A stretch of 64,000 nucleotides of DNA from Candidatus Bathyarchaeia archaeon (GTDB lineage: Archaea; Thermoproteota; Bathyarchaeia; Bathyarchaeales; Bathycorpusculaceae). The notes under the pieces were generated by a model, which was not told the origin of the DNA, ran no database searches, and worked only from the letters and a program-made list of their open reading frames with translations. Positions 7,389 to 40,225 of this stretch are shown here, piece by piece; positions within the stretch are counted from its first letter, which is position 1, and each line of letters opens with the position of its first letter. The stretch spans positions 31,150-95,149 of the forward strand of contig JAVZLH010000004.1 of assembly GCA_038883855.1 (NCBI GenBank), read 5' to 3'. A program made the position numbers and the translations under genes.

Positions 7389-7510
7389 ACTTAAGCTTGA
7401 CCGCTGTAAAAGAATTAGAATTTATTTCTAGAATTTTCTTCTATCCTAATTTTCCATATGAGGTTATAAGGTTTGATGGGAAAAACGGGTTTGGGGAAGG
7501 GAAGGGAGAG

Positions 7511-7696
7511 TTGGGAGAAGAATCCTTCGGCTGGATTTTTGTGGATTTTGTTCCCCTACTTTATGAAAGGAGAAGGGTTGCAAGACAATTCCAAATTGAG
7601 ATGTGGCTTGACCTTGCCCAACTTGTTAAGGAATTGGGCATCGAAAAAACAAAAGAACTATCACGAAACAACCAGCCGGTAAGCTACATAATTTAG
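7511..7696 (+). CDS. Possible small hypothetical protein (~61 aa)
   Basis: TTG at 7511 follows an RBS-like GGGAGAG and is in frame with the 7397..7696 ORF. It fills the gap between purP and the kinase. No recognisable motif. Confidence 0.35.
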   Translation: MGEESFGWIFVDFVPLLYERRRVARQFQIEMWLDLAQLVKELGIEKTKELSRNNQPVSYII

Positions 7697-17069: not shown

Positions 17070-17084
17070 TGGAGAGGGTAAATA

Positions 17085-17594
17085 ATGGTGAAAATTCACG
17101 AAAGAAAATTTGTTTCCGCCGACCCAGACAAATGCGTTGGCTGCCAAGTCTGCGAATACATCTGTTCATGGGAAAAAGAGAAAGCCTTCAACCCGCTTAA
17201 ATCAAGGATAAGAGTTGTAAGGCTAAACCCTCTGGTAAACCTCTCGCTTACATGTAGGCTTTGTGAAGAACCGCCGTGTGTCGCAGCTTGCCCAAGAGAC
17301 GCCTTAACCCAGTCTGAAGAGACAGGCTTAATAATGGTTGATGAGGACAAGTGCAACGGTTGCGGATGGTGCATTGAAGCATGCGATTACGGAGCAATTT
17401 CGCTGCATCCAGAAAAGAAAGTTGTGTTCGTCTGCGATTTATGCAAAGATAAGGGCGAACCTCAATGTGTTAAATGGTGTCCAGAAGAAGCCCTAGACTT
17501 GGTCACAGCAGACGTTTTAGCTCAAAAGGCGAGAATAACCGCTACAAAGAAGTTGCTTCAAGAAGCTGCAAAAGTCGCTGCTCCTGCAACTTAG
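17085..17594 (+). CDS. 4x[4Fe-4S] ferredoxin-like electron-transfer subunit (AOR-associated)
   Basis: CVGCQVCEYIC, CRLCEEPPCVAACP, CNGCGWCIEAC and CDLC..CVKWCP. Confidence 0.9.
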   Translation: MVKIHERKFVSADPDKCVGCQVCEYICSWEKEKAFNPLKSRIRVVRLNPLVNLSLTCRLCEEPPCVAACPRDALTQSEETGLIMVDEDKCNGCGWCIEACDYGAISLHPEKKVVFVCDLCKDKGEPQCVKWCPEEALDLVTADVLAQKARITATKKLLQEAAKVAAPAT

Positions 17595-17619: not shown

Positions 17620-18114
17620 TTAAGGAAGAACTTTAAGCAAAGTTTTTACAATTTTTTGTTCTGCCTTCCAAATTTCTAGTGTTAATCCTTCGCCGAAGTC
17701 TGTTTGCTTAGGCTCTATCAACAGCAAAGCAATTTTCGCCTTAACCGTTTGAGCCAAATGCTCACAAAAAACTCTTAAAGGAAGCATGTGAGTTGAAAAC
17801 GCTGGAAAAATTTCTAGATGTTGCGGAAATGTGAGTTTTGATTCGCCCGGTTTTAATCCTAAAATTGCAGCGTCTATGAGGAGGACATGGGTCGGGTTGA
17901 AGTCGATTATTTGTTGGATGAAACCTTCTGGGACGGTTTCACACTCGATTAACTGGACATTACTGGAGACTTTTCCATGCAGGTCTTGAACTATCTTGAC
18001 GCCGATAAAATCGTCCATGCAAATAGGATTTCCAATCCCTGCTACAACAACCCTTTTAGCGTCAACAAGCCATTTTTTTAACTCTTTTTGAAGGTTATAT
18101 TTTCCACTGATCAA
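17620..18114 (-). CDS. Hydrogenase maturation protease (HycI-like)
   Basis: GIGNPICMDDFIG, ETVPE, IDAA and STH motifs; directly downstream of mvhA. Confidence 0.88.
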   Translation of the reverse strand: MISGKYNLQKELKKWLVDAKRVVVAGIGNPICMDDFIGVKIVQDLHGKVSSNVQLIECETVPEGFIQQIIDFNPTHVLLIDAAILGLKPGESKLTFPQHLEIFPAFSTHMLPLRVFCEHLAQTVKAKIALLLIEPKQTDFGEGLTLEIWKAEQKIVKTLLKVLP

Positions 18115-21477: not shown

Positions 21478-22031
21478 CAGCTTTTCACCTTCTCAAAAGT
21501 TTTCGCGTTTTCAAGAATCTTCGCCGAACCAGTAAGCTCAAATATTTTTGAAACGTCGGCGAGGTTTGGCTTTGGAAGAGGCGGTAAACCATCCTCCACC
21601 CTCTTTTTATGTCTTGACTCTGGAATGGCGTATACATAACCGCTTTTCAAAAGGTTAGTTGCCAACTCCTTGTAAACTAGAGGCATTATACCCTTATCTT
21701 TCGTAACCATGTTTCGTAAGGCGCGCACTATTCCAGCGATTTCAACACCCTGCGGACAGTGGTCAACACATGTGAAGCACGCTGTGCAAAGCCAAAGGGT
21801 GTCGTTTGACAAAAGCCTATCTTTTAGCCCAAGCTGCACCATTCTTGCTATCTTTCTTGGTCTGTAAAAGTCGCTGAACCTTGAGATTGGGCAGTCGGCT
21901 GTGCATGTTCCACACTGGAAGCAGAGCATTATTTTTTCTGCGCCATGTATCTTACTCATTTCATACTTGAATTTGGGATCTAGTTCCTCAGCCTTTATCA
22001 CGCTTGCAGCTTGCTCTTTAACTTCACTCAT
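21477..22031 (-). CDS. hdrC: Heterodisulfide reductase subunit C (copy 1)
   Basis: [12 protein letters not shown] and [14 protein letters not shown]. Confidence 0.93.
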
Positions 22032-22465
22032 TCGTTTTTCCCTCCACTCTTTAACGGGCTTGGACCAAGCTTTTTAATTTGTTCAACCATGTCCCTCACA
22101 ACAGCGGCAAACTTGTCTCCTTCACTTGCCGAAACCCACTCCAGTCGCACACGCTCCGGTTCTATTCCGAATTCCTGCAGAACCTTCTTTAGGAGCTTTA
22201 CCCTTCTTAAAGCTTTAAAGTTCCCGCTGAGGTAATGGCAGTCTGATGGTAAATGACAGCCGGCGACGAGAACCCCGTCAGCTCCATCCTTGAAGGCTTC
22301 TAAAATGAAGGCTGGATCTACTCTGCCGCTGCACATTACGCGGATAATTCTTATGTGTGGCGGGTATTGGATGCGGCTTACACCAGCCAAGTCTGCTCCA
22401 GCATAGGCGCACCAGTTGCAGAGGAAGCCAACAATTTTTGGTTCGAAATTTTTTTCGCCGCTCAT
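22028..22465 (-). CDS. mvhD: [2Fe-2S] adaptor subunit MvhD
   Basis: [26 protein letters not shown] and WVSASEG. Confidence 0.95.
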
Positions 22466-25400
22466 GCTGTTGCCTCCTCCATTAAGGCTGCTCTAACTTG
22501 AGCCATTATCTCTTCAGTTGTGAAGTGACCTAGGATTATGGCTTTTGTTGGACATGCTGTTCCGCAGACTCCGCATCCCTTGCAGAGGGCTTCAATTACG
22601 TGTGCAACTGGTTTGCCGTCTTTTTCTTTCATTTCTATCGCGCCGTAGGGACATAGATATTCACAGATTCTACAACCACTACATAAATCTTCATCCACGT
22701 TTGCGATGATTCCCTCGGTTTCAAGCGTCTTTTTCGATAATATCGTTGCGGCTCTTGCTGCTGCAGCACACGCTTGAGCGATGCTTTCGTCAATGTATTT
22801 GGGGAGATGCGCCATTCCACATAGGAAGACGCCGTCTGTTTGGAAGTCTACTGGTCTAAGCTTCATGTGGGCTTCTAGGAAGAAACCGTCTTTTGTCAGA
22901 GGCACTTTAAGCATTTCTGCTATGCGCTTATTATCTGGGTTTGGAACTGTGGCGGCGCTTAAAACAACGAGGTCTGGTTGGATTTCAATCTCCTCTTTAA
23001 TCACTGGTTCATAGAATCTTACTTCGAGTTTTCCACCAGTGTTTGTAACTTTTGGCTTTCTTTCATCATCATAGTTTATGAACATGACGCCTTTTTCCGC
23101 TGCCTTGCGATAATAGTCCTCTTTGAAACCATAACTTCTAACATCCTTGTAGAGAACGTAAACATCTGTCTGGGGGCTGGTCTCCTTGATTTTTAACGCG
23201 TTTTTGATGGCCTGCCCGCAGCATATCCTAGCACAGTTAGGTCTTTCTTCCGTTCTTGCGCCGACACATTGTATCATGACAACTGTTTTTGCTTTGAATT
23301 CGCCTTTCGCAATTTTCTCTTCCAACTCGTGTTGCGTCACTACCCTTGGGTCTTTACCATATAAGTATTCGGTTGGCTTGTATTCAACAGCTCCAGTTGC
23401 AACGATAACCACACCATGCTCTATTTCCTTTTCCTCGCCATTTTCCACAATTTTTGATTTAAAGTTGCCAACGAAACCGTTGACTTCAACGACTTCCGCT
23501 CCGAGGTGAACTTGTATCTTCTTGTTTTCCATAACCTCTTTAACTAGCTTGTTCAACTGTTCCTTCGGGTCTTCGCCTTCCAGCAGATAGTAGATTTTGC
23601 GCAGGTGTCCACCCAACTCTTTTTCGCGTTCTACAAGGTGAACTTCAAAGCCTTGCTTGGCAAGTTCTAGAGCTGCAGTCATGCCTGAAACTCCGCCGCC
23701 GATTATTAGGGCTACAGGCGTAACGCCTATCACTGGCTTCTTCAGAGGTTTCAGAAGCCTTGCTTTTGCAACCACTGACCGAACAAGGTCTTTGGCTTTT
23801 TCCGTTGCTTCCTTGGGCTGGTGCATATGCACCCAACTGCACTGGTCTCGGATGTTCGCCATCTCAAAGAGGTAGGGGTTCAAGCCAGCCTCTTGAACGG
23901 TTTCTCTGAAAAGCGGCTCATGTGTCCTAGGAGTGCAGGAGGCGACAACAACACGGTTAAGCTTATACTCTTGTATTTTCTCTTTTATCCTCTTTTGTGT
24001 GTCGTCAGAGCACGTGTAAAGGTTGTCTTCGGCGTAAACCACGTTTGGAAGTTTCCTCGCATATTCTACAACTTCCGGGACCCTTACTATTCCGCCGATG
24101 TTTATTCCACAGTGGCAAATGAAAACTCCTATACGCGGCTCTTCTTGGCTTACGTCCCTTTCAGGCGGATACTCCTTAACCGTTACGAACTTTCCTCTTT
24201 CAGAAGCTATTATGGACATGGCTTTTGAGGCTGCAGCACTCGCCTGCGCAACACTTTCAGGAATATCTTTCGGCGCGCTGAAAGCTCCACAGACAAATAT
24301 GCCTGGCTTTGATGTTTCAAGGGGCGTGAAGGTTTTTGTTTCACAGAAATGATATTTGTTAAGCTTTATCCCGAGGATTTTGGCAAGCTTTTCTATGTCT
24401 TTTGGCGGTTGCATTCCGGTGGAGAGAACAACCGTGTCGAACTCTTCTGTTTTCGGCGTTTCGTCCTCAACATAGTGGACGAAGAGGTTGTTTGTCGCCG
24501 GGTCTTCTGTTACGCTTGCAACCCTTGACCTCACAAACCTTATACCGTACTCCTCTTTTGCACGGTTGTAGTAGGCGTCAAACTCTTTTCCATAAGCGCG
24601 GATATCCATGTAGAAAATTGTGCAGTCAAGCTTTGTCGGCACATGTTCCTTAGCTATTATCGCCTCTTTAATGCCGTACATGCAGCACGCTGCAGAACAA
24701 TAGTTGTTTCCGAGTTGCGCATCTCGTGAGCCAACACATTGAATGAAGGCTATTTTCCGCGGGATTTCGCCGTCTGAAGGTCTTAGGACTATTCCGCCGT
24801 AGGGTCCTGAAGCGCTTAAAATGCGTTCGAACTCTATGCTTGTTACAACGTTTGGGAAGCGTCCATAACCATATTCGCTTTTGAGCCTAGCGTCGAAGGG
24901 TTCGAATCCTGGTGCTAGGATTATTGAGCCTACTTTTAGGGTTACTTCGCTGTCTTGCTGGTCGTATTCAACAGCCTTCGCCTTACATACTTCTTGACAT
25001 GTTCTACAGCCTATGCATTTTTCTCGGTTTATTATGAACCTTAACGGAACTGCTTGTGGATACTCAACGTAGATGGCGCTTTTATCAGTCAAGCCTTTAT
25101 TGTATGTGTCTATGGCTTCAACGGGACATTTTTGTGCGCACAGCCCGCAGCCGTTGCATTTTTCCTCGTTTATGTAACGGCTTCTTTTTCGAATTTTAAC
25201 TTCGAAGTTTCCAGCTTCGCCTTCTAAGCCCACCACTTCGCTGTTCGTAATCAAAGTTATGTTTGGGTGCCTTCCAGTTGTGACAAGCTTTGGTGCAAGA
25301 ATACACATTGAACAGTCGTTTGTTGGGAACGTCTTGTCAAGTTGCGCCATTACGCCGCCTATGCTAGGCGACTGGTCAACAAGGTACACTTTAAAGCCAG

Positions 25401-25482
25401 AGTCAGCCAAGTCTAGGGAAGCTTGTATTCCAGCGACGCCTCCGCCGACCACGAGGACTGAACCTACTTTTTCCTTAGCCAT
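22462..25482 (-). CDS. hdrA: Large (~1006 aa) HdrA with two tandem FAD modules
   Basis: Two GGGxxG FAD motifs, [23 protein letters not shown], an internal CHCGINI/CTPRTHE domain, a second IQCVGAR..CARICC and a C-terminal ferredoxin. Start at ATG 25482 after GGAGGT. Confidence 0.93.
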
Positions 25483-25483
25483 T

Positions 25484-26233
25484 TTACTTAACCTCCAAAG
25501 CTTTGTAAAGTGGAGTTGTTCCTTCAACCCTGTCTAGGGCTATCATCCCCTTTCTACGCATGTTAGTTATGTGTCGAAGAACTGCGGCTGGCTTAATGCC
25601 GAGGTTTTCGGCTAAAGCCTTAACTGAAAGGGGTTTATCCTTTGTGAGAAGGTGAATCTTATGTCGGATAAATTCTGCAGTAACGATTTCGTCTAATAAG
25701 GCGTCAAATTCCTCTTGTGGGATTTTTTCGCCATAGGCGTTTAGGAAGTTTGTCAGTTCTTCCTCCCTTCCCAAAAGAACTCTAAGTCTAAAATCTGATG
25801 CCGCGTTCTTTGCTGCCAGAATATTTTCTGAAATTTTTGATTTCGGCTCTTTCAATGGGGAAGCGCCAAGCTTCCAGATGTCTTCTGAAAACTCTCTTGC
25901 AAGGTAACTGAAACTTATCTCTTCCAATGGTGAAGACCAAAACAGTTTCAAGCGTTCAGGTTCAAGACCAGTTAAAGCCATCAGCTTCTTCAACATTTTG
26001 ACAGCGCGTTCTGCTTGAAGGTTGCCGTCGACAAAGTGGCAGTCTGGCGGTTTGCATCCAACCAGCATTACGCCGTTTGCTCCCTTGGCGAATGTTTCTA
26101 AAACTATAACTGGGTCTATCCTTCCAACACATGCAACGCGGACAACGTTAACGTTTGATGGAACATGTAATTCTTCTTGGCAGTAAGTCCAGTTACACAT
26201 GAAACAAACAATTTTAGGCATGTTACGTTCCAT
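25484..26233 (-). CDS. MvhD-like [2Fe-2S] domain fused to a helical linker and a C-terminal winged helix-turn-helix
   Basis: FMCNW, ACVGRIDP, GCKPPDCHF and LEPERL, then LSVKALAENLGIKPAAVLRHITNMRRKGMI. Start at ATG 26233 after GGGAGGT. Confidence 0.85.
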   Translation of the reverse strand: MERNMPKIVCFMCNWTYCQEELHVPSNVNVVRVACVGRIDPVIVLETFAKGANGVMLVGCKPPDCHFVDGNLQAERAVKMLKKLMALTGLEPERLKLFWSSPLEEISFSYLAREFSEDIWKLGASPLKEPKSKISENILAAKNAASDFRLRVLLGREEELTNFLNAYGEKIPQEEFDALLDEIVTAEFIRHKIHLLTKDKPLSVKALAENLGIKPAAVLRHITNMRRKGMIALDRVEGTTPLYKALEVK

Positions 26234-26238
26234 GCTTT

Positions 26239-27954
26239 TTACCTCCCTAAAGCTGCCGAAACGAGCATTAAAATTTGCTCGTTGGTCAGCTTCTTCATTG
26301 TTATGGCTTGTTCGGGACATCTAGCCGCACATACCCCGCATCCCTTGCATAGGTCTTCGTTTACCTGCGCTATTCCTTTCTCGTTCTTTTTAATTGCCTC
26401 AACGGGGCAGATAACCGCGCACACGTTGCATCCTACACAGCGGTTTTCATCCACAACGGCCTTATCGCCTTCGCATAAGTCCATGCTTGCAAGGCATTCT
26501 GAACATGGTCCACAGCCCAAACAGCGAAACGCTTCAAAACGCGCCTTCTGCTTTATCCTCTCCAAATATTCCACAGCTTCTTCAAAGCTTAAATGAGGCT
26601 TCTCTATGGGCGGTTCATACCTACGCTCTTTCTTCTTTATAGAACCCCAGTTTTTAACCCAGGTTGTCTCTTCAACCTTCTCCTCTCTACCCTTCCGCAA
26701 ATCTTGACCCCTAAGATAAAGATGGATGGAAACAGCCGCCCTTTTTCCAGCGCCCACAGCCTCAATTATGCTTGCGGGCCCAGTGGCTATGTCGCCTCCA
26801 GCGAAAACTCCTGGAACATTTGTTTCCAATGTTAACGGGTCAACTTGTAAGGGTGGACCCTTTTTGTCTTGGCTTAAAACTTCTGCTGGCAGACACTCGG
26901 TTTCAGCCACTTGTCCAAGGGCTGGAATCACCATGTCAACTTCATATTGGTGTTCTGAGAAACTTATTGGAACTGGGCGTCTTCTTCCGCTTTCATCTGG
27001 TTCGCCGAGGCGCATTCTCAGGCATTCAACAGCCTTAACCTTTCCATTTTCGCCTATAATCTGTTTCGGAGCAACCAACAGGTAGATTTTTATTCCGTCT
27101 TTTTCAGCCAGCTCCACCTCGTGCGGCAGCGCCGGCATTTCCTCACGTGAACGCCTATAAAGAATCATGACCTCTTTTGCGCCAAGCTTCTTTGCAGTTC
27201 TAGCTGCGTCGATTGCGGTGTTTCCGCCGCCGATCACAGCAACCCTTTCGCCGACGGTAACATGCTCGCCAAGCGCCACCGCCCTCAGAAAGTCTACAGC
27301 ATTAATAACGCCTTCTAAATCTTCGCCGGGCACATTTAATTTCATGCCTTTCTGTGTTCCGATGGCTATGAAAAACGCTTTGTAACCATCAGCCTTTAAG
27401 CTTTCAAGCGTCACATCTTTTCCAAATTCTACGCCAGTTTTTATTTCAACGCCTAAATCTTGGATGTAGGCTATTTCGTTTGCAACAACAAATTTTTCAA
27501 GACGAAAGTTTGGGAGACAATACCGCATCATGCCGCCTGGCTCGGACATGCGCTCAAAAACGGTTACGGGATAACCGAGCTTTGCAAGTTCGTAGGCTGC
27601 TGTTAACCCTGCGGGTCCAGCCCCTATTACGGCGACTTTTTCGCTGTATTTCTTCGGTATTGGGTCAGGCTTTACCCGTCCTTGTTCGCGTTCTATGTCT
27701 GCAACAAGCCTTTTTAGAGCGCGGATGGCTACGGCTTGGTCAACATTAACTCTTGCGCAAGCGTCTTCGCATGGGCTGAAGCATACTCTTCCACAGATTG
27801 CAGGGAAGGGCATGTCCTTTCTTATAACTTCCACAGCCTCTCTGAATTTACCCCTTTGAATCAGAGAAACATATGCTTGAACGTTTACCCGCGCTGGGCA
27901 CACCGCCCTACACGGGGGCAACAATCTTTTTTCACTTATTGGAATGGCTGTCAT
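26239..27954 (-). CDS. GltD/NfnB/HdrL-like FAD- and NAD(P)H-binding Fe-S oxidoreductase with C-terminal ferredoxin
   Basis: PCRAVCP, CGRVCFSPCEDAC, GAGPAG, GGGNTAID..YRRSREEMPA, FAGGD, RCLGCGPCSEC and two CxxCxxCxxxCP motifs. Confidence 0.9.
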   Translation of the reverse strand: MTAIPISEKRLLPPCRAVCPARVNVQAYVSLIQRGKFREAVEVIRKDMPFPAICGRVCFSPCEDACARVNVDQAVAIRALKRLVADIEREQGRVKPDPIPKKYSEKVAVIGAGPAGLTAAYELAKLGYPVTVFERMSEPGGMMRYCLPNFRLEKFVVANEIAYIQDLGVEIKTGVEFGKDVTLESLKADGYKAFFIAIGTQKGMKLNVPGEDLEGVINAVDFLRAVALGEHVTVGERVAVIGGGNTAIDAARTAKKLGAKEVMILYRRSREEMPALPHEVELAEKDGIKIYLLVAPKQIIGENGKVKAVECLRMRLGEPDESGRRRPVPISFSEHQYEVDMVIPALGQVAETECLPAEVLSQDKKGPPLQVDPLTLETNVPGVFAGGDIATGPASIIEAVGAGKRAAVSIHLYLRGQDLRKGREEKVEETTWVKNWGSIKKKERRYEPPIEKPHLSFEEAVEYLERIKQKARFEAFRCLGCGPCSECLASMDLCEGDKAVVDENRCVGCNVCAVICPVEAIKKNEKGIAQVNEDLCKGCGVCAARCPEQAITMKKLTNEQILMLVSAALGR

Positions 27955-28055
27955 CGGTTAGACCAGCCTCTTAGAAGTATATTCGAATGTTTTGTCCAAT
28001 ATATTAACCCACCTAAACCATGTTTAACATATATGTAACACAAGATTTTTAACAG

Positions 28056-28076
28056 AAAAAGGGGGGAGTTGAGGGT
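28056..28076 (-). terminator. Putative pyrimidine/oligo-T terminator after the RHH-GcvH gene
   Basis: The minus strand reads ACCCTCAACTCCCCCCTTTTT directly after the stop codon. Confidence 0.4.
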
Positions 28077-28667
28077 TTATTCGCGGAGCCTTCCTTCAAG
28101 TTTGCTTACCCACTTATTGTATTCTCTTGGGCCTAACAAGCCTTTTAGTTCCTCTTCCAAAGTCATGGAGTTTTTGGGTTTAATCTCGATTATCCAGCCT
28201 TCGCCATACGGATCCTCATTTATCAGGTGAGGTTTATCCCTCAAATTCTCGTTAACCTTAACGATTTTACCGCTTACAGGTGCGTAAAGGTCAAACATGA
28301 ACATCCATGTTTCAGCCACACCGAAAGGCTCCATTTTGTTAACTTCTTTCCCAACAGGGTCTGTAATAACGTTTGCAATGCCCTTTAAGTGTTTTTGAGC
28401 GTAGTCTGAAACGCCCACGCGTATGTTTCCTTCAGGGGTTATTTGAGCCCAAGTGTGCTTTGGTGTGTATAGCAGTTGTTCAGGTACCGCTAGGAGTTCT
28501 TTGCACTTTTCGGCTGGAATGCCCTCAGCGCGCATAAGTTCTTCTAAGCGCAGTCGGATTGCTTCTGAAACGAACTCCGATATGCTTCGGTAACGGCCCG
28601 TTTTGAGAGCTTTTTCGATTTCTTTTATGAGTTCTTGCCTTATACTTACGGTTTTCCATTCTGACAT
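28077..28667 (-). CDS. Ribbon-helix-helix domain fused to a GcvH-like domain lacking the lipoyl-lysine
   Basis: N-terminal WKTVSIRQELIKEIEKALKTGRYRSISEFVSEAIRLRL (RHH). C-terminal YTPKHTWA, VGVSDYAQ, DLYAPVSGKIVKVN and INEDPYGEGWI (GcvH), with ETWM in place of ESVK. Confidence 0.88.
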   Translation of the reverse strand: MSEWKTVSIRQELIKEIEKALKTGRYRSISEFVSEAIRLRLEELMRAEGIPAEKCKELLAVPEQLLYTPKHTWAQITPEGNIRVGVSDYAQKHLKGIANVITDPVGKEVNKMEPFGVAETWMFMFDLYAPVSGKIVKVNENLRDKPHLINEDPYGEGWIIEIKPKNSMTLEEELKGLLGPREYNKWVSKLEGRLRE

Positions 28668-28802
28668 TTTACATCAACCTCCTTTACATCTACGTGATAT
28701 ATAGAGCAAAGCTAAAGATATATATCTAACGTAAATAAAAAATATAGAATAAATAAATGTGTCAAAGTATATATCGTAAGTATAAGTAAAGAGTTGGTAA
28801 AT

Positions 28803-29876
28803 ATGGAGATTAGAAAAGTACAGAAAGTCGGCCACTCAACAATGACAGTTTCACTTCCAAGCGAGTGGGTGAAACAACACAACCTCAAACCCAGCGACCT
28901 CCTGTTCATTGTTCCAGAAAGAGACGGTTCGCTTAAGTTGATGCCAAGCCAACTAGCCCAAAGAGAGGAAGCAGAAGAATACGTGATAAATGCTGATGCT
29001 TGCGATGAGCCTGGAATGCTTGAAAGGATAATTGTCGGCGGTTATATACTTGGAAGAGACGTAATAAGGGTTATTTCTTCAAGTCGCATAGGGAAAGCCC
29101 ACGTAGACGAAGTGAGAAATATTGTCCAGAAGCTCATAGGTTTGGGTATTCTCGAGGAAACGCCGAAGAGCATCCTTCTCCAATGCTCAATTGACTCGAC
29201 AAAGTTCAAGCTCGACATGTTGATTAGGCGGCTTTCGCTAATCGCCTCCACCATATTGTCGGAGGCAGTTCAAGGTTTTCGAGAGAAAAACTATGATTTA
29301 GTGGAGGAGGCGATCGCCCGCGAAGATGAAGCAGACAAAATCTACTATTTGGCAGTGCGTCTGCTGCTTTCTGCACAGATAAAACCAGACATAGCAGAGG
29401 AAGTCGGTATGGTAGATATACTTTTCATTCCAGCAGCCAGAGTAATACTACAATATTTGGAGTTGGTTGCAGACTACTCGGAATTTTTAGCCAGAGAAGT
29501 TCTTGAAATGGAAGTGTACCGTAACAGGTTGCCGAACGAATTGGTTGATAGAATTTGCCATCTCAGTGAGTTAACCCAAACAATTTTTCAGAAAGCTGTG
29601 GAGTGCGTTTTCACAAGAGACTTAAAAGTTGCAAATCAGCTTTTGGAGATGAAAAACGTACTTGAAATAGACTCAAACAGACTTATGCGAGAGGCGCCAG
29701 AGATTCCCTATGTTAGGGCGATTCTTTCATGTCTAAGCAAGATTGCAGACAAAGGCGCAACCATAGCTGAAATAGCCATAAACAGAGCTTTGGAAGAACC
29801 TAGCAGGTACGCGGGGAACATTGTTCGAGCAGTGAAGCACGTGCGGACTATGCCGTTACCTGCTGGAAAGAGATAA
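28803..29876 (+). CDS. AbrB-domain/PhoU-family transcriptional regulator
   Basis: RKVQKVGHSTMTVSLPSEWVK (AbrB-like), IGLGILEE, EDEADKIY and LELVADY PhoU repeats; divergent from the RHH-GcvH gene. Confidence 0.88.
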   Translation: MEIRKVQKVGHSTMTVSLPSEWVKQHNLKPSDLLFIVPERDGSLKLMPSQLAQREEAEEYVINADACDEPGMLERIIVGGYILGRDVIRVISSSRIGKAHVDEVRNIVQKLIGLGILEETPKSILLQCSIDSTKFKLDMLIRRLSLIASTILSEAVQGFREKNYDLVEEAIAREDEADKIYYLAVRLLLSAQIKPDIAEEVGMVDILFIPAARVILQYLELVADYSEFLAREVLEMEVYRNRLPNELVDRICHLSELTQTIFQKAVECVFTRDLKVANQLLEMKNVLEIDSNRLMREAPEIPYVRAILSCLSKIADKGATIAEIAINRALEEPSRYAGNIVRAVKHVRTMPLPAGKR

Positions 29877-29961
29877 CTGATGTTTACATTATACTTGTGC
29901 CACTATTAGCACAACAAGATTAAAAAGGCGGAAAGTAAATATTGTATTTAGAGGGAACTTT

Positions 29962-30417
29962 ATGGATGATTTTGAGGAAGCATTACAAAACATAGACGTC
30001 TTCTGCAGAGTTCTAGCTAAGAAGATAGCTGAAAGCTTAAATGATGTTGAAAGCAACGTTTCAGTTGAGCCTATTGAGAGGCTCTTGAGAAGAAAATATA
30101 TTATAGAGGAGCAATTTGAACAAAATTCAACGGTTAAACATTTTATTCCGCTTCCACAAGTTGAGGAGCCTCTAATAGACGTTTTTGAAGATGACAACTA
30201 CGTTAAAGTTTTGATGCAATGCCACTGTAAAGGCCAAAAAGTAACAATTCACAGAGATTCGAGTGGCTTAGAAATATGTTTGGAAAACGTGTGTAGAAAA
30301 CTTAACCTGCCGGTTGAACAGTTACAAGTTGAAAACATGGTCATGAAATGCAACAATAACGAAGCTTTAGAAGTTGAAATTCCAAAATTGAAGACAACTG
30401 TAAATTACGACCGCTGA
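29962..30417 (+). CDS. Hypothetical protein with Hsp20/alpha-crystallin-like C-terminal domain
   Basis: EEPLIDVFEDDNYVKVL and NNEALEVEIPK resemble the archaeal Hsp20 core. Confidence 0.6.
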   Translation: MDDFEEALQNIDVFCRVLAKKIAESLNDVESNVSVEPIERLLRRKYIIEEQFEQNSTVKHFIPLPQVEEPLIDVFEDDNYVKVLMQCHCKGQKVTIHRDSSGLEICLENVCRKLNLPVEQLQVENMVMKCNNNEALEVEIPKLKTTVNYDR

Positions 30418-30741: not shown

Positions 30742-31617
30742 CTAGCCTATCTTCTCAAGCACTTTGTCAATTTTCATTTTGTGGAAGTCAAGCGCCAGCT
30801 CCTTGGGTTCCACGCCTAGGCTTAGGCTCAACAGCTCAGCGTAATGGACTATAGGCATATTGTATTCTTCTTTATAAGAGGATTTTATCAGCATCTGCCC
30901 AAGGTCAAGGGTTAGGAAACAGAAGGGACAAAGCGTTGATATGCAGTCGGCGCCAGCTTCTGTTGCGTTTACAATTTTGTCTCTTGCTATTGCCAAAGCA
31001 ACATCGTCCGCGTAACCCCTAAGGAGACCGCCACAACATCTCAGCTTGTTTCTGTACCAGATGCTTTTTGCGCCTAAAGCCTCAATTAACGTGTCAAAGA
31101 TTCTTGGGCGTTCAGGATCGTCGAACCTTAAGAGCGCGCTTGGTCTGAGAAGGTGGCATCCAGAGAAAGAAGCCACTTTCAACTTGCTTAATGGTTTAAC
31201 AACGCTTCTTTTTAGGCGGTCTACACCAATGTCCTTCATTAAAACTTGAAGGAAATGCCTAACTTCCTTGTTGCCCTTAAACTCCTTGCCAACATTCGCT
31301 AGGATTCTGTTCACCCGTTCTCGCAGTTCCTCTTTTTCTTTCAGCAAAGTGTTTGTCATTGCCAGAGACTCGAAACATCCCGTGCAAAGTGTGACTATGT
31401 TTAGGTCGGCTTCTTCGGCTAGGCAAATGTTGTAGGCTGCAATGGCTAGGCTTGTTCCCAAATCTATAGACTGCAGCGGTGGAGGAGCGCAACACGTCAT
31501 ATTCTCTAGGTCAACGAGTTCTATTCCCAGCTTTGTTAGGGCTTTTCTCGCTGAAAGTTCGTAGTGGGGTTGGCGGGCAGGTATTGTGCATCCTAAAAAT
31601 AACGCGTAGGTCGTCAT
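30742..31617 (-). CDS. hdrB: Heterodisulfide reductase subunit B (copy 2)
   Basis: FLGC..CCAP..CTGC and GCH..CCGG..CPFC. Confidence 0.92.
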   Translation of the reverse strand: MTTYALFLGCTIPARQPHYELSARKALTKLGIELVDLENMTCCAPPPLQSIDLGTSLAIAAYNICLAEEADLNIVTLCTGCFESLAMTNTLLKEKEELRERVNRILANVGKEFKGNKEVRHFLQVLMKDIGVDRLKRSVVKPLSKLKVASFSGCHLLRPSALLRFDDPERPRIFDTLIEALGAKSIWYRNKLRCCGGLLRGYADDVALAIARDKIVNATEAGADCISTLCPFCFLTLDLGQMLIKSSYKEEYNMPIVHYAELLSLSLGVEPKELALDFHKMKIDKVLEKIG

Positions 31618-32123
31618 TGGGATTCACCTTTTTTAAACATGATTTTATCAAAGCCTGTTGCTGAAAGAATCTTCTTTACGGCGTCGACACCAGTTGGTTT
31701 CAAGGGCGGCAGCCCATAGTCTCCCCGCTTCTTTTCCAAGAATTTTGATATGGGAACTATGCGTCCTTCATTCATTATCCCAGCTGCGAACTCAGCATAG
31801 ATGTTGGGTATGTTGCCCTCACGTATGGCCATGTTTCTCAAGGCGTAGATGACATCTGCAATTTCAACTTTCTGCGGGCAGCGTTCCTGGCAGTTGTAGC
31901 AGGAGGCGCAGAGCCAAATGGCGTCGCCTGCAATGACGTCTTGTCTAAGCCCTAAAAGTGCGAGGCGAATGATTTGTCTTGGATTGTAGCGGTCTGTGGT
32001 TTTTGCTACTGGACAGCTGCTGGCGCATGTTCCGCATTGATAGCAGTAGGTTATTGTTTCTCCGCCGAGTCTGCTGGTTATCTCTTTTGTAAAGTCTGTG
32101 GTTGAAGTTTTTTCCTGCGCCAT
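31614..32123 (-). CDS. hdrC: Heterodisulfide reductase subunit C (copy 2)
   Basis: CYQCGTCASSCP and WLCASCYNCQERCP. Confidence 0.93.
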   Translation of the reverse strand: MAQEKTSTTDFTKEITSRLGGETITYCYQCGTCASSCPVAKTTDRYNPRQIIRLALLGLRQDVIAGDAIWLCASCYNCQERCPQKVEIADVIYALRNMAIREGNIPNIYAEFAAGIMNEGRIVPISKFLEKKRGDYGLPPLKPTGVDAVKKILSATGFDKIMFKKGESQ

Positions 32124-32138
32124 TATAGTTATCTCCTA

Positions 32139-34613
32139 TTAGGCTAGTTGCAGCAGCCCTAATTTCTCCACTCTTTCAGTCATAGTTCTAGCGGCTTCAG
32201 CGAACTTGTCTCCCTCAATGTAGACGAGGTTAAACATTTCAAGCCTTTCGGGTTCTATGCCGCACTCCTTAAGCAGCTTCTTCGCCAGTTCCACTTTCAC
32301 TTTGGTTTTTTGGCTGCCAACTTCATAGTGGCAACCGTCTGGTTTGCATCCGACAACCATAACTCCTTGGGCGCCAGCCTTGAAGGCTTCGAGTATTTGC
32401 TGAACTTGAACCATGCCCGTGCACGGAACTTTCAGCACTCTTACGTTTGCTGGATACTGCATCATAGCCATGCCTGAAGAGTCCACTGCCGCGTGACCAC
32501 ACTCTGAGCAGCTTATGGCTAGAATCAGCGGTTTAGATGTTCCATTCACTGAAAGCAACGCCTTCATTTGGGCTGATATTTGGGCTGGCTTCAAGTGGCG
32601 GAGTTCAATGGCTCCGACGGGGCATGTTCCTACACATACGCCGCATCCTTCACAGAGAAGGTCGTCTACTTTCGCGACAAAGTGCTCCTTGTCCTTTGGC
32701 ACTAGGCTTATGGCGCCGTATGGGCATGTGACTGGACAGAATTCACAGTCGCCGCAGTAATCCTCATTCACAAAGGCGGTTTTTCGGTCTTTGATTATTT
32801 TGCCATTTGTGAGGAATTTGGCTGCTTTCACCGCCGCCGAGTGGGCATGTAAGGATGTTGTCGGCGCGTCTTTTGGGAAGGTTGCACCTCCGCAGAGGAA
32901 TATTCCCCTACACTTTGTTTCCGTAGGTCTGAGTTTCGCATTGTATTCTTTGAAGAAGCCGTCTTGGTCGAGTTCTAAGCCGAGGATTTCGGCAAGTTCC
33001 TTTGTGCCTTCGGCTGGAACCATGGCTGCCGCGAGAACCACAAGGTCAGCTTCTAACTCCAAGAATTTCCTCAAAAGTTCGTCTTCAACATCCACCACAA
33101 GCGTGTTTGTTGCTGGGTCATGCAGAATTTCTGTCGGTCTGCCTTTAACAAATTTTATTCCCATTTCTCTGGCTTTTTCATAATAGTATTCATGTTCTCT
33201 TCCAGTTGTCCTAATGTCAATGTAGCATATTGTGACATCAGCGTCTGGATAAGCTTCCTTGATTAGGGTTGCGTGCTTCAGCGATATCATGCAGCATATG
33301 CTTGAGCAGTAGGGGTTCCAGCGCCTATCCCTAGAGCCGACACATTGCACGAAAACTATTCGTTTTGCTGGTTTCTTGTCTGAGGGTCTTATTAACGCGC
33401 CGTTTGTAGGTCCAAAAGCGTCCAGCATCCGTGCAAGTTCCAAGTGAGTTATGACGTCTGGATACTCGCCATAATGGTATTCTTTGATTACGCTCGGGTC
33501 GTATTCCTTGAATCCCGTGGCAACTATTAGGCCTCCAACGTTGAGAGTTAGGTTTTCAGTCTTCTGGTTCAGTTCAATAGCCTTTGTTGGGCAGACCTCA
33601 ACGCACTTTGCACATTCAGCAAACTTGCAGGCTTTCTCGTCTATGACATAAACTGGCGGATAAATGAGAGGCTTGTTTATGTAGATTGCCTTGCGCGTTT
33701 TGAGCTTCGCGTTATACTCGTCTGGCACCTCAACGGGGCAAACAGTCGTGCATAAATCGCAGCCTACGCATTTCTTTTCATTAACATATCTCGGCTTTTT
33801 CTCTATCGTCACCTTATAGTTTCCAGGAACACCCTCAACTTTTACAACTTTAGAGTTTGTAAGCACGTTTAGGTTTGGAATTTCAGAAAATCCCGAACGG
33901 TAAACGCATTTTCGCGATGTGTGAGTTACTGTTTTCAGGTCTGAGGCTGGAGATTGTATGCATATGGCACAGTCGTCTGTTGGGAAGAAACGCACAGCCC
34001 TAGCAGCCAATCCGCCCAAGAAAGGTTCTTTTTCAACTAAGTAAACCTCGAAGCCCATGTCTGCCAAATCTTCAGCAGCTTGCATTCCACCTATTCCACC
34101 GCCAATCACAAGAACGGATTTGACGACTGGAAACTCGAGTTTCTCTATTGGTTCGGAAAGTTTAACGCATTCTATGGCGGCTAAAAGCATCGCTTTAGCT
34201 TTTTCAGTTGCTTCTTTCGGCGCATCTCGATGAGGCCATGCACAATGGTCTTTTATGTCTAGAACTTCCATAAGGTTTGGATTTAGCCCAGCTTCTTCAA
34301 CGGCTGTGGCTATGGCGATTTCGCTTATTTTTGGAATACTTTCGGCGACGACAACTCTATTCACTTTCTTGTCTTTAACGGCGTCAACTATGGTTTTTAG
34401 TCCTTGACCACGCCAGAACTCGCTTCCTCTCGCAACAAAAGTCACTCCTTGAACGTTTTTCACGAAGTTTTCTAAGGCTTCAAAGTCGAGGATTTTTGCG
34501 ATTTGCCCTCCACAATTTGATAGGAATACTCCAATTTTTACTTCTTCCAAGGCTTTCACCTTACCTTTTACTTTATCTTTTGAGCGTTTTGACGAGCCTC
34601 TTTTGGCTGTCAT
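32139..34613 (-). CDS. hdrA: HdrA-MvhD fusion with degenerate N-terminal Fe-S domain
   Basis: GGGIGG, FPTDDC, an inserted ferredoxin, VQCVGSR..YCSSICC, a C-terminal ferredoxin and an MvhD domain (CSECG, PCTG, GCKPDGCHY). Start at ATG 34613 after GGAGGTG. Confidence 0.9.
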   Translation of the reverse strand: MTAKRGSSKRSKDKVKGKVKALEEVKIGVFLSNCGGQIAKILDFEALENFVKNVQGVTFVARGSEFWRGQGLKTIVDAVKDKKVNRVVVAESIPKISEIAIATAVEEAGLNPNLMEVLDIKDHCAWPHRDAPKEATEKAKAMLLAAIECVKLSEPIEKLEFPVVKSVLVIGGGIGGMQAAEDLADMGFEVYLVEKEPFLGGLAARAVRFFPTDDCAICIQSPASDLKTVTHTSRKCVYRSGFSEIPNLNVLTNSKVVKVEGVPGNYKVTIEKKPRYVNEKKCVGCDLCTTVCPVEVPDEYNAKLKTRKAIYINKPLIYPPVYVIDEKACKFAECAKCVEVCPTKAIELNQKTENLTLNVGGLIVATGFKEYDPSVIKEYHYGEYPDVITHLELARMLDAFGPTNGALIRPSDKKPAKRIVFVQCVGSRDRRWNPYCSSICCMISLKHATLIKEAYPDADVTICYIDIRTTGREHEYYYEKAREMGIKFVKGRPTEILHDPATNTLVVDVEDELLRKFLELEADLVVLAAAMVPAEGTKELAEILGLELDQDGFFKEYNAKLRPTETKCRGIFLCGGATFPKDAPTTSLHAHSAAVKAAKFLTNGKIIKDRKTAFVNEDYCGDCEFCPVTCPYGAISLVPKDKEHFVAKVDDLLCEGCGVCVGTCPVGAIELRHLKPAQISAQMKALLSVNGTSKPLILAISCSECGHAAVDSSGMAMMQYPANVRVLKVPCTGMVQVQQILEAFKAGAQGVMVVGCKPDGCHYEVGSQKTKVKVELAKKLLKECGIEPERLEMFNLVYIEGDKFAEAARTMTERVEKLGLLQLA

Positions 34614-36030
34614 AAATTTCCACCTCCAACGGCATTTGACCAGCCGCAAAGTGGGTTGCACAAGCAAAACACGGGTCGTAAGCCCTAAAAGCCATCTCCA
34701 CCATGTTCAATATTCCGTCAGTAACCTTACCCTTCTTGATCAAGCCCTTAGCAGCGTTCTTTATTGACATGCAAATGCCCGGGACATTGTGGGTTGTAGC
34801 CACTATCAAATTGACTTTTTTGGCTAAGGCATTCTCGTCCAACTGATAATGGTGTATTAATGTGCCTCTTGCAGCCTCCACTATGCCGACGCCTTCGCCT
34901 GGTTTGCCCGGCTTGTTTCTAATGTTTTTCCCAGTTATGTCTGGGTCGGTTACGAGTTCGAGAGCTCTTTCAGCAGCGTAAAGCAGTTCGATAAGCCTAG
35001 CCCAGTGATAAGCCAACGTGTTGTGGACTGGTTTTCCGCCTAGGGTTTTATACATACGCTCGTATTCCGCTTGGGCTAACGGTGTTGCCATTCCGTCGGC
35101 GGCGTTAAGCCTTCCAAGTGGACCGACTCTGTAGACGCCGTTTTCCAAACCGTCGACAAATCCTTTCCATCCTACCTTTTTGAGGTATGGAAGTTTAACG
35201 TAGGTCCACGGTTCAACACGTTCCTCTATTATGTCAAGGTATTCTTTTGGAGAGAATTTAACGAACTCTTTGCCTTGCGGATCTACGACTCTGACGTCGC
35301 CGTCGTAGAAGTTTACTTTGTTGTTTTTGTCAACCAAACCCATGTAATAGGTTTTCAGCGTGTATGGTTCGCTTGTGATTAGTTTTACGTATTCTGTGTT
35401 TTTGAGAACTATGTCGTCGAACAGTTTAAGAGAGAACTTTGCAAACTCTAAACAGCTTCGCACCATTTTCTCGATTTCTTTTCTTTCCTCTTCAGATAAT
35501 CCCTTTGCTATTCCGCCTGGCACGCACGCGCTGACCGGGTGTGTTGCTTTTCCGCCCAATATCTCGGTTATTTTCTGTCCGTAAGCCCTATGCTTTATGA
35601 CTTCTTTGCCTATTTCTAATCCAGCCTTTTCAATAACGCCTAGAACGTTGCGTTTTTCCGGCGGTGCGTCTGGACCGACAACAAAGTCTGGTCCACCAAG
35701 ATAATAAAAGTGCAGTGTATGGTCGTAGATGTAGTAGCCACAATACATAAGTTCCCTAAGTTTTTTGGCTGTTTCTGGCGGTTCCACGTTGAAGGCTGCG
35801 TCTAAGGCTTTGGCGCCTGCCATGTGGTGGGCTACTGGGCATACGCCGCAGATTCTTGTTGTTATTATGGGCAGGTCTTCTGCTCTCCTTCCTTCGCAGA
35901 ATCTTTCGAAACCGCGGAGTTCTGGAACTTGGAAGTAGGCTTCGTCCACATCGCCTTGATCGTTTAGGAATATGGTTATTTTTCCGTGGCCTTCAAGTCT
36001 TGTTATTGGGTTTATAACGATTTCCTTCAC
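34573..36030 (-). CDS. mvhA: [NiFe]-hydrogenase large subunit, group 3c (copy 2)
   Basis: RICGVCPVAH and DPCFACATH; closely paralogous to 18160..19611. Confidence 0.94.
   Translation of the reverse strand: MKEIVINPITRLEGHGKITIFLNDQGDVDEAYFQVPELRGFERFCEGRRAEDLPIITTRICGVCPVAHHMAGAKALDAAFNVEPPETAKKLRELMYCGYYIYDHTLHFYYLGGPDFVVGPDAPPEKRNVLGVIEKAGLEIGKEVIKHRAYGQKITEILGGKATHPVSACVPGGIAKGLSEEERKEIEKMVRSCLEFAKFSLKLFDDIVLKNTEYVKLITSEPYTLKTYYMGLVDKNNKVNFYDGDVRVVDPQGKEFVKFSPKEYLDIIEERVEPWTYVKLPYLKKVGWKGFVDGLENGVYRVGPLGRLNAADGMATPLAQAEYERMYKTLGGKPVHNTLAYHWARLIELLYAAERALELVTDPDITGKNIRNKPGKPGEGVGIVEAARGTLIHHYQLDENALAKKVNLIVATTHNVPGICMSIKNAAKGLIKKGKVTDGILNMVEMAFRAYDPCFACATHFAAGQMPLEVEIYDSQKRLVKTLKR
35594..35756. 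repeat. 163-bp tract identical to 19175..19337
   Basis: Same comparison as above. Confidence 0.85.
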
Positions 36031-36968
36031 TTCATCACCCTCCTTTTTAAGATAGAGTTTGCAAGCGAATACTTGTAGAAAGTTCCAACTGGGTCAACAA
36101 TTTGTTCGATGACCTTTGGGTCTGTGGCTATTGAGGCGAAGGCGCTTATCATGGCTGCGCCTTGATCTGCTACCCGAGGCGCTGGTCCACCGCATCCAGT
36201 GCACGGTATGTTCGCCTTTAAACATTGGGCGCCGCATCCGCCGCGGGTTGCTGGACCCATGCATATTACGCCTTGATCTAGGAAGCATGTTTTGAAGTCA
36301 TCGTTTATTTCGTAGATTCTTTTAATTTGGGTTATTTTTCTGTCCTTCTTTTCTCTTGGGCATTCATCGCAAATGGACTTGTTCAGGAGGAGGCTTGAGC
36401 CTTTTGGCGGGAGTTTGCCACTAAATATTGCTTCTATGGCGTCAAGTATTCTTGGAACCGGGGGTGGACAGCCTGAGATGAAGTAGTCAACATCCACTGT
36501 TTGTGCCAGGGTTTTAACTGTGTCATAAAATTCTGGGAGTTCAAGTTCTCCCTGTTTGACCCTATAGCGGGTTTGGGGAGTGGTGCGCTGCGGGTTTTTT
36601 GTTGAGGGAGTTTCAAAGTATGCTCTTTCAAAAATTTTCTCTCGATTCCATAAGTTTCCGAGGCCTACTACGCAGCCGTCGCATGCGCATGAGCCGAAAG
36701 CCACGAGGACTTTTGATTTTTGTCTTAGAAGTTTTGCCATGTGTTCTTGTTCTGAGTTGCGTATTGCTCCATTGAAGAAGCAGACGTCTATGCTTTTGTC
36801 GGGCATGTTTTCAACATCTTTGTATTTTATGTCTAGGGCTACAGGCCAGAAAACTAAGTCTGCTTTGGCTATTACGTCTAGGATTTTTTCGTTGATGTCT
36901 AAAACGGCGATTTCGCAGCCTCCGCAGCTCGCAGCCCAGTAGAAGGCGAATTTTAGTTTCTTCTCCAT
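36027..36968 (-). CDS. mvhG: [NiFe]-hydrogenase small subunit (copy 2)
   Basis: ASCGGCE, GSCA, SGCPP, ICDECP and CMGPATRGGCGAQC. Confidence 0.93.
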   Translation of the reverse strand: MEKKLKFAFYWAASCGGCEIAVLDINEKILDVIAKADLVFWPVALDIKYKDVENMPDKSIDVCFFNGAIRNSEQEHMAKLLRQKSKVLVAFGSCACDGCVVGLGNLWNREKIFERAYFETPSTKNPQRTTPQTRYRVKQGELELPEFYDTVKTLAQTVDVDYFISGCPPPVPRILDAIEAIFSGKLPPKGSSLLLNKSICDECPREKKDRKITQIKRIYEINDDFKTCFLDQGVICMGPATRGGCGAQCLKANIPCTGCGGPAPRVADQGAAMISAFASIATDPKVIEQIVDPVGTFYKYSLANSILKRRVMK

Positions 36969-40047: not shown

Positions 40048-40225
40048 GAAAGTCAACCGCCACACGTGAATGCTACGTTTGGCACAAGTTAAACTTTACG
40101 AACCAAAACTACACTTTCTAGTAATGTAGAAAATGAGCATAGTTAGGGGTGAAAATCTAGAGGGGGTCTATCGGTATTGGTTTGTTTTTAACTCAAAAAA
40201 TGTAGAGAAACTACGCCCCGGTCGA

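Follow-up and report, generated by a model that had tools for sequence, protein, structure and literature searches.

A predicted NADP(H) arm of an Hdr/Mvh complex and a putative RHH-GcvH-like regulator in Bathyarchaeia

Three co-oriented genes, here called A, B and C, stand directly upstream of a heterodisulfide reductase-hydrogenase (Hdr/Mvh) gene run in a 64,000-nucleotide (nt) stretch of Candidatus Bathyarchaeia archaeon DNA (GenBank assembly GCA_038883855.1, contig JAVZLH010000004.1, positions 31,150 to 95,149 of the forward strand; hereafter the window). The host is a Bathyarchaeia metagenome-assembled genome of 1.1 Mb that is 85% complete. Judged from their sequences, B, an NAD(P)H flavoprotein, and C, an MvhD-type protein with a winged helix-turn-helix (wHTH) tail, very probably feed NAD(P)H electrons into the Hdr/Mvh complex or drain them from it. 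The fuller explanation that we favour, with moderate confidence, is that B and C make up an NADP(H) arm of this complex in which the wHTH of C serves for docking, and that A, a putative ribbon-helix-helix (RHH) protein with a GcvH-like domain, is a separate RHH regulator. The electron path, the preferred nucleotide, binding of A to DNA and the signal that A senses are our inferences.

The flavoprotein, the proposed MvhD adaptor and the tandem HdrA

The genes of the proposed arm and of the run that follows it are listed here by window position.

26239-27954, minus strand: gene B, 571 amino acids (aa), NfnB/GltD-type FAD and NAD(P)H flavoprotein
25484-26233, minus strand: gene C, 249 aa, MvhD-type domain (about residues 7-125) and a 115-aa tail ending in an ArsR-like wHTH
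25487-25846, minus strand: tail of C, residues 130-249
22462-25482, minus strand: fused tandem ("type II") HdrA, 1006 aa
17620-22465, minus strand: mvhD, hdrC, hdrB, mvhG, mvhA and a HycI-type protease gene (Pfam)
22028-22465, minus strand: plain MvhD (Pfam)
17620-18114, minus strand: HycI-type protease (Pfam)

A sequence-only reading of this DNA had assigned domains to the three genes, to a divergent AbrB-PhoU gene beside A and to an hdrA-mvhD-hdrC-hdrB-mvhG-mvhA-protease run; Pfam and NCBIfam bear out these calls, and the divergent gene and the run were both recovered with Pfam. The junctions from B through mvhA measure -4 to +13 nt, with 45 nt before hycI, and B, C and the Hdr/Mvh genes would form one operon with its own promoter. 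The order of divergent AbrB-PhoU, A, B, C and HdrA was found again in many other Bathyarchaeia genomes, so the arrangement goes beyond chance and the co-occurrence of the three genes is upheld.

B comprises an N-terminal Fer4_20 domain (two [4Fe-4S] clusters), a Pyr_redox_2 domain and a C-terminal region with two further [4Fe-4S] clusters (Pfam), and scored 514.5 bits against NF009410, 1.5 under the cut-off of 516. Residues 497-570 correspond to the ferredoxin domain found at the C-terminus of solved HdrA chains. By sequence similarity its closest solved relatives, 9bov_A (413 bits), 9n5u_A ("NfnA"), 8oh5_C and 4ylf_B (312 bits), are the NADPH-binding NfnB/Stn-type modules of bifurcating enzymes. 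GGGNTA, YRR and GAGPAG motifs are invariant in the B family, and the first two suggest that B uses NADP(H), an assignment that relies on the GXGXXA rule given in PMC12054007 and on general knowledge of NfnB.

The open reading frame of C spans 25484-26320. Of 988 relatives, the best 120 have lengths of 236-260 aa (most 247-251), so translation of C most likely begins with the ATG at 26233 and yields a protein of 249 aa. The protein scored 112.9 bits against FlpD/MvhD (PF02662; cut-off 22.3), and C13, C35, C60 and C65 are invariant in 21 sequences; it lacks the second Cys of the CNWC motif present in the operon's plain MvhD. An AlphaFold2 model (predicted local distance difference test score, pLDDT, 82; predicted template modelling score 0.81) consists of an MvhD-like domain, a helical linker and a helix-turn-helix. 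Foldseek matched this model to MvhD chains only (5odc_D, 8rvu_F and 7bkb_F; expectation value, E, 4e-10 to 6e-9; template modelling (TM) score on target 0.72-0.84), covering about 133 residues, and a wide VIA-align search returned Rossmann-like folds over residues 1-126 only (best Z 8.6), the tail being barely covered. The last 16 residues have pLDDT <50, as does the conserved C-terminal "TPLYKALEV" stretch in the monomer.

The tail is where C departs from an ordinary MvhD. A profile of C residues 130-249, built from 14 sequences and searched among 1.84 billion proteins, gave matches to 326 cluster representatives with E<=1e-3, of which 151 had E<=1e-10. Among 31 of 150 listed matches that were scanned, a non-random sample drawn mostly from the longer ones, FlpD/MvhD stands directly before the tail in 25. 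Several of these proteins are fusions: P0328 (1737 aa) reads HdrA-ferredoxin-MvhD-tail-Fer4_20-GltD, P0371 MvhD-tail-GltD-ferredoxin, P0338 MvhD (fragment)-tail-GltD and P0249 HdrA-MvhD-tail. Most tail matches in Bathyarchaeia and bacterial genomes lie in open frames of about 240-290 aa. Some tail-bearing matches are short at the N-terminus; a selenoprotein reading of these was unsupported, since other members of their clusters have 257-259 aa, which suggests that start sites were called differently.

The same association recurs in Bacteria, where 32 of 151 sampled Thermodesulfobacteriota genomes hold the tail. Seven loci were taken from this phylum, one of them too short to analyse; in all six others a tandem HdrA is followed by a full-length C-like gene (33-35% identity) and then a B-like gene (38-47%). 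The bacterial B-like gene often continues into HdrA-like sequence (HdrL type). Of 20 Bathyarchaeia loci without A, 19 likewise have a fused tandem HdrA behind their C-like gene.

Tandem HdrA itself appears to be built of complementary halves. By phmmer, residues 9-373 correspond to 5odc_A 146-511 (thioredoxin reductase-like (TrxR) domain with inserted ferredoxin), residues 447-600 to 5odc_A 2-155 (N-terminal domain) and residues 829-999 to 5odc_A 479-649 (end of TrxR and C-terminal ferredoxin). The first half thus holds TrxR and the inserted ferredoxin and no N-terminal domain, and the second holds the N-terminal domain, TrxR and the sole C-terminal ferredoxin domain; the protein is therefore asymmetric, with one N-terminal domain, one inserted ferredoxin and one C-terminal ferredoxin. 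The NDCSxC motif, which holds Cys197 in 5odc_A, is kept in the first half and is absent from the second by sequence reading, the printed alignment skipping residues 601-828. Complementary fused HdrAs have been described as heterodimer-like, under the names "HdrA 3/4" and "type II" (bioRxiv 2021.09.25.461819; PMC12054007).

In the path that we propose, B would exchange hydride with NADP(H) at its FAD and its [4Fe-4S] clusters would pass single electrons to its HdrA-type C-terminal ferredoxin domain. C, as an MvhD-type [2Fe-2S] adaptor, would relay these electrons from B to the asymmetric tandem HdrA, its wHTH tail being the docking or scaffold element that characterises MvhD adaptors joining a second flavoprotein module to HdrA. 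The operon's plain MvhD would connect the MvhAG hydrogenase, and the complex would link H2, NADP(H), ferredoxin and a disulfide as a split form of the HdrL type.

Gene A and its putative regulatory region

Upstream of the B operon lie gene A, the elements between A and B, and the divergent gene.

27999-28007, minus strand: TTAATATAT, conserved TATA box and candidate promoter of the B operon, preceded by GGTGGG/GATGGC (similar to a B recognition element)
28025-28041, minus strand: direct repeat GTGTTA-N5-ATGTTA with 11-bp phase, candidate operator just upstream of the B promoter
28054-28066, minus strand: CCCCCCTTTTTCT run directly 3' of the A stop, candidate archaeal oligo-T terminator
28077-28667, minus strand: gene A, 196 aa, putative RHH, linker and GcvH-like domain
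28098-28490, minus strand: GcvH-like part of A, about residues 60-190
28290-28313, minus strand: hairpin E119-T-W-M-F-M-F-D126, in which M122 (28302-28304) replaces the lipoyl lysine
28524-28667, minus strand: putative RHH part of A, about residues 1-48
28668-28802: divergent promoter region between AbrB-PhoU and A, from an alignment of 16 orthologous regions
28794-29876, plus strand: AbrB(SpoVT)-PhoU regulator-like gene, MazE/AbrB and two PhoU domains (Pfam), divergent from A; its start is probably 28803, as homologues align from residue 4 onward
29962-30417, plus strand: orf151, 3' of AbrB-PhoU

The larger part of A is a GcvH fold, scoring 106 bits against Pfam GCV_H (PF01597, residues 65-188) and 124 bits against NCBIfam GcvH. 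In its AlphaFold2 model (pLDDT 80; GcvH part >85) the two RHH helices are present and the strand is unformed in the monomer; Foldseek aligned the model with H-proteins (3ab9, E 5.8e-14, root-mean-square deviation 1.5 over 129 columns, TM score 0.9 on target). The lipoyl-lysine column reads ETWMF instead of ESVKA. Lysine is absent from this column in all 22 aligned members of the A family (Met in 19, Trp in 3) and present in 12 of 13 ordinary GcvH comparators in the same alignment, and no invariant Cys was found in the A-family alignment. A is the sole GcvH-like gene in its genome, and neither lipoate ligase (PF03099) nor GcvT (PF01571) gave a match in the 85%-complete host genome, the control searches having given matches in 11 and in 14 out of 14 genomes.

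On this sequence evidence the fold of A cannot carry lipoate, and because both the lysine and an invariant Cys are lacking, the domain is not a cofactor carrier or a thiol redox sensor in the usual sense. The sequence-only reading had rightly noted the missing lysine; its treatment of the domain as a cofactor-carrier fold does not survive. The best 120 of 1187 A relatives are 196-202 aa long and are named GcvH in the source annotation, and "glycine cleavage system protein GcvH" is wrong as a statement of function. In a protein-atlas search, A matched nothing beyond ordinary GcvH and the Bathyarchaeota clusters to which it belongs. No description of an RHH-GcvH fusion was found in the literature searched, supplementary gene tables (e.g., PMC12054007, PMC9012536) lying outside its scope, and the RHH with a lysine-less GcvH domain is a previously undescribed architecture. 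Its putative RHH follows the NikR RHH pattern and aligns best, weakly, with the RHH of NikR (E 0.16). Single chains of 408-411 aa join two tandem A paralogues (as seen in L017-L019) and so hold a double RHH. Weak ParD/CopG-like matches of the RHH had raised a toxin-antitoxin reading, which we rejected as no locus has a toxin-like neighbour.

To place A in context, we compared 24 loci that carry an A-type gene, namely L001-L020 and L081-L084. AbrB-PhoU is divergent upstream of A in 22 of the 23 loci with upstream sequence. Sequence downstream of A is available for 23 loci, and in 18 of them B comes next, either at once or behind a TauE-family gene. Wherever enough sequence is available (14 of 14 loci) C follows B, and HdrA comes next where sequence allows. 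At three loci (L010, L081, L082) A instead precedes a TauE-orf124-NuoE-NuoF-HoxU-HoxY-HoxH operon, and at L015 it is followed by TauE-orf124 only, with nothing redox-related after. Full-length A occurs in 9 of 151 evenly sampled Bathyarchaeia genomes, all of one order, and the C tail in 31, six of which hold both and 25 of which are without A; one further genome, G020, has B at a contig end. A is thus an add-on of one lineage that heads two different NAD(P)H-linked hydrogenase operons. The sequence-only reading had joined A, B and C into one module: the genes are indeed conserved, but A stands alone before Hox operons and C-like genes occur without it, so a single module does not hold.

The TauE/SafE-family membrane protein gene directly after A (six of 24 loci: L010, L015, L016, L081, L082 and L083) lies between A and B or the Hox operon, for instance at L010 989-1960 (with orf124 at 2042-2416) and L016 at about 7065-7940, and may hint at a sulfur-anion link. 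The deep-branching locus L017 (3079-14300) carries two tandem A paralogues, a shortened GltD-like gene, C-HdrA twice and mvhD-hdrC; its GltD-like protein has 453 aa and no Pfam match across the stretch where B binds NAD(P)H.

The intergenic sequence separates A from the B operon. In the window the gap is 122 nt and across 14 aligned loci it is kept at 110-234 nt, with B-C-HdrA tightly packed. A pyrimidine or T run is found at the site of CCCCCCTTTTTCT in most of these 14 loci, and a near-invariant GGCTTAATATAT box lies about 45 nt upstream of the B start. We regard A as a separate unit because the 122-nt gap holds the oligo-T run, the conserved TATA box and the phased direct repeats. A third, TTTA-type copy of the repeat lies about 10 bp beyond the pair at 28025-28041. 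RYGYTA-N5-RYGYTA has this one match in the 64-kb window against 0.30 expected, at least one match arising in 25 of 100 shuffles; there being no second match in the window, we draw no regulon from it. The strict repeat is found at the equivalent position in five other loci (L001, L003, L007, L008 and L009) and degenerate copies (RYGYYA-N5-RYRYYA, then TTTA-type) in the remaining aligned loci, and it also occurs at four unrelated places (L012 16946, L034, L043 and L076). The Hox operon promoters have a different conserved pattern (AAGTAA ... CTTAAATA) that is not clearly the same repeat. Among the RNA data sets listed, none covers window positions 25000-29900; two runs labelled "metatranscriptomic WGS" share 14-20% of the sequence words and are probably DNA.

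The divergent promoter region (28668-28802) has conserved blocks of its own in the 16 loci, namely ATAGTATTTAC, TATATGCAYTAnGTATATAT, GCTATATATCA and the Shine-Dalgarno sequence TAAAGGAGGTTGAT. At L002, L005-L009, L012 and L013 the gap between AbrB-PhoU and A widens to 420-520 nt and holds a conserved coding-like "YYxHERxWN...FGR" that is not in the window; about 300 nt upstream of A, these loci show by eye a small co-oriented gene that we take to resemble DUF2061.

We suggest that A is transcribed separately as an RHH transcription factor whose lysine-less GcvH-like domain would act as a sensor or partner-binding domain, and that A and the divergent AbrB-PhoU would form a regulatory head controlling NAD(P)H-linked hydrogenase operons. 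From its sequence and genomic setting A is probably a transcription factor with a new type of sensor domain. Several findings weigh against this. The RHH_1 match of A (17.5 bits, residues 6-43) is under the Pfam cut-off of 20.5, the promoter of A itself gave no match to the repeat at this spacing, identity stands at 84-100% for the best 120 of 1187 relatives, a degree of conservation unusual for a regulator, and P0431 (723 aa) fuses an A-type RHH and DUF2096 to an HdrA-like enzyme, hinting from its domain order at a physical association of A with Hdr.

The last two of these would suit an accessory subunit or substrate stand-in, whose GcvH domain would dock on HdrB as a lipoyl-GcvH carrier does and whose RHH would only dimerise. 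Such a role also gains from GcvH genes elsewhere: lysine-bearing GcvH lies within a few kb of Hdr/Mvh clusters in four of 20 loci taken from other Bathyarchaeia whose genomes lack A (L115 405-878; L116 8376-8828; L117 175-588 and 13598-14065; L118 14078-14500), a GcvH gene is reported inside an Hdr/hydrogenase cluster of Culexarchaeia together with the idea of a disulfide presented to HdrB, and LbpA is described as required by sHdr systems. We nevertheless consider the subunit role unlikely. A heads Hox-type operons without adjoining Hdr genes (L010, L081), it has a predicted promoter and oligo-T stretch of its own, it offers neither Lys nor invariant Cys for carrying a disulfide, and W4, T6 and S8 of its RHH strand are conserved as would be expected for base contacts from the NikR alignment. 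With AbrB-PhoU, A stands at the head of two different operon types, which fits a regulator better than a subunit.

Two further observations touch these proteins. P0430 joins A to DUF2096_N; the host DUF2096 gene (G000:C1:174957-175214; L098 1474-1983) follows a gene for a 145-aa helix-turn-helix protein with a Cys-rich C-terminus (L098 991-1428), beside a flavodiiron-like gene. One subtype of lysine-bearing GcvH has a basic C-terminal extension, "LTKID..L.YRW..K".

Alternative readings and flanking genes

PutA combines a flavoenzyme with an RHH domain, and C could by analogy be both enzyme subunit and operon repressor, its [2Fe-2S] state gating DNA binding by the ArsR-like wHTH, with A binding too. 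The sequence-only reading had made a claim of this kind, that two carrier folds were fused to DNA-binding folds, so that NAD(P)H or Fe-S redox state could control or feed the complex. A number of findings speak for it and against docking: HTH_24 scored 27.7 bits on C, above the 21.9 cut-off; the tail profile is closest to DNA-binding ArsR/HlyU regulators in the PDB, at E 6.5e-5 (1uly_A), 4e-4 (HlyU) and up to 1e-3; R226 and adjoining basic residues in the putative recognition helix hardly vary; and stand-alone tail proteins of 110-125 aa exist, of which some may be fragments, and a cluster member bears the name "predicted transcriptional regulator". In Bathyarchaeia without A, moreover, the C-like gene is preceded by an HdrA-like gene in 18 of 20 loci and by a B-like one in only two (L101, L111), so the tail cannot be a GltD-specific dock.

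Even so, we regard DNA binding by C as quite unlikely. The tail is embedded between MvhD and GltD in oxidoreductases of 1227-1737 aa, and its association with HdrA and HdrL genes is conserved in both Archaea and Bacteria, where a regulator would more likely track lineage-specific promoters. The low-confidence "TPLYKALEV" segment would fit one that orders only on a partner. The sole description of an MvhD with a wHTH found in the literature searched is a preprint on class II benzoyl-CoA reductase (bioRxiv 10.64898/2026.04.10.717634), and in this sole structural precedent the wHTH serves for contact between proteins: in the cryo-electron microscopy structure BamF, an MvhD homologue >100 aa longer than other MvhDs, couples two flavin modules and its wHTH contacts the electron-input subunit BamI. 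On account of the MvhD-tail-GltD fusions, the bacterial HdrA/HdrL synteny and BamF, a docking role is much more likely than a regulatory one; C is most likely an adaptor with a structural wHTH, and the tail marks MvhD adaptors that couple some second flavoprotein module to tandem HdrA. Of the earlier claim, DNA binding thus stays plausible for A and becomes unlikely for C; likewise, B and C very probably feed or drain NAD(P)H electrons at Hdr/Mvh, but redox control through the wHTH of C is unlikely.

A more speculative idea, which we hold to be very doubtful, would make A a decoy carrier. Its GcvH domain would dock on the enzyme in a state-dependent manner, on HdrB or on the hydrogenase/NAD(P)H module, and thereby pull the RHH off the phased promoter repeats. 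The idea arises because lysine-bearing GcvH lies near Hdr/Mvh clusters and because of the Culexarchaeia case; the lipoyl-GcvH beside the Hdr clusters of sister Bathyarchaeia may be the Hdr disulfide substrate, and A would descend from such a protein by loss of the lysine. The arrangement would amount to a PutA-like trigger enzyme split into two polypeptides, of which P0431 would be the joined form.

That A and AbrB-PhoU regulate something else, such as the TauE-family exporter and orf124, the proximity of Hdr/Mvh being gene-order drift, has in its favour the TauE gene after A in six of 24 loci and L015 without redox genes after TauE-orf124, but is highly unlikely given B next to A in 18 of 23 loci, directly or after TauE, a Hox operon in three more, and the conserved repeat element at the B promoter.

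Farther out in the window, a second Mvh/Hdr cluster (30742-36968, minus strand) encodes mvhG, mvhA, an 842-aa HdrA::MvhD fusion, hdrC and hdrB and is kept upstream of AbrB-PhoU in many related loci. The two Hdr clusters are flanked by genes for a 917-aa fusion of ADP-forming acetyl-CoA synthetase with a GNAT acetyltransferase (37312-40065, minus strand) and for an aldehyde:ferredoxin oxidoreductase with a ferredoxin-like subunit (15207-17594, plus strand). The gene orf151 always follows AbrB-PhoU, and orf124 follows TauE downstream of A in five loci; both have identities of 35-74% across loci and no Pfam match at E<=1.

Significance and relation to known systems

Bathyarchaeia are among the most abundant archaea of sediments and hot springs, and we know of no disulfide substrate for their Hdr/Mvh complexes. 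If a free NfnB-type arm does join through an MvhD adaptor, the complex would be a hub of H2, NADPH, ferredoxin and thiol/disulfide, which bears on redox balance during acetogenic or fermentative growth. The tail would be a marker, common to Archaea and Thermodesulfobacteriota, for MvhD adaptors that couple a second flavoprotein to HdrA, and would separate them from hydrogenase-linked MvhDs, all of which are now annotated "hydrogenase iron-sulfur subunit". Should A be a regulator, it would add a new type of sensor domain to RHH factors and open a way to study how hydrogenases are regulated in a lineage not yet cultured.

Among the systems that resemble A, the GcvH and LbpA proteins near Hdr-like systems share its fold and its genomic tie to Hdr genes; unlike them, A has Met or Trp for the lipoyl lysine, an RHH fused in front, and a genome in which no lipoate ligase or GcvT was found. 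NikR likewise places its RHH at the N-terminus, ahead of a domain that binds a ligand or partner, and gave the best RHH alignment noted above, but the sensor of A would be a GcvH fold rather than a nickel-binding domain and has no evident metal ligands.

B resembles the NfnB/StnC-type proteins (4ylf_B, 5jca_L, 8oh5_C and 9bov_A), with residues 12-548 aligning at 312-413 bits over Fer4_20, FAD and NAD(P)H domains. It differs in having an HdrA-type ferredoxin tail and an MvhD-type neighbour, with no NfnA/StnAB partner encoded here. C would resemble BamF, judged from the description in the preprint; the BamF input module is the NuoEFG-like BamGHI, not GltD-like, and BamF is described as having selenocysteine.

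Published proposals have a GltD/NfnB module supply Hdr with NAD(P)H, and such a module is reported beside mvhADG in Bathyarchaeota (PMC12054007; bioRxiv 2021.09.25.461819). The type II and III HdrAs of methane-metabolising archaea and the HdrA-NfnB fusions of anaerobic methanotrophic archaea share with the present operon a fused HdrA with complementary halves; in the GltD-bearing forms, as described, GltD is inserted in the HdrA ferredoxin domain, whereas here it is a separate subunit that would attach through the MvhD-tail adaptor.

Another likeness is to HdrL/HdrABC-MvhD of sulfate reducers, described as HdrA with a GltD-like NAD(P)H module and always an MvhD gene. HdrL is reported to be colocalised with MvhD in Desulfobacterium autotrophicum (PMC2702500), and an HdrABC/HdrL/MvhD set was detected in the proteome of Syntrophobacter fumaroxidans (Sfum_0819-0824; PMC5947623). 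In our comparison the MvhD next to the GltD/HdrL-like gene bears a C-type tail in all six analysed bacterial loci. Unlike these systems, the present operon encodes its GltD module as a separate protein of 571 aa that bears an HdrA-type ferredoxin domain, has the order B-C-HdrA rather than HdrA-C-B, and includes a full MvhAG hydrogenase. The sequence-only reading had known of no characterised system with this composition, which is too strong for B and C, as HdrL/MvhD and GltD-bearing HdrA are described in these sources from genomes and proteomes, though not biochemically; B and C are most likely a split form within this HdrL and GltD-bearing kind of Hdr.

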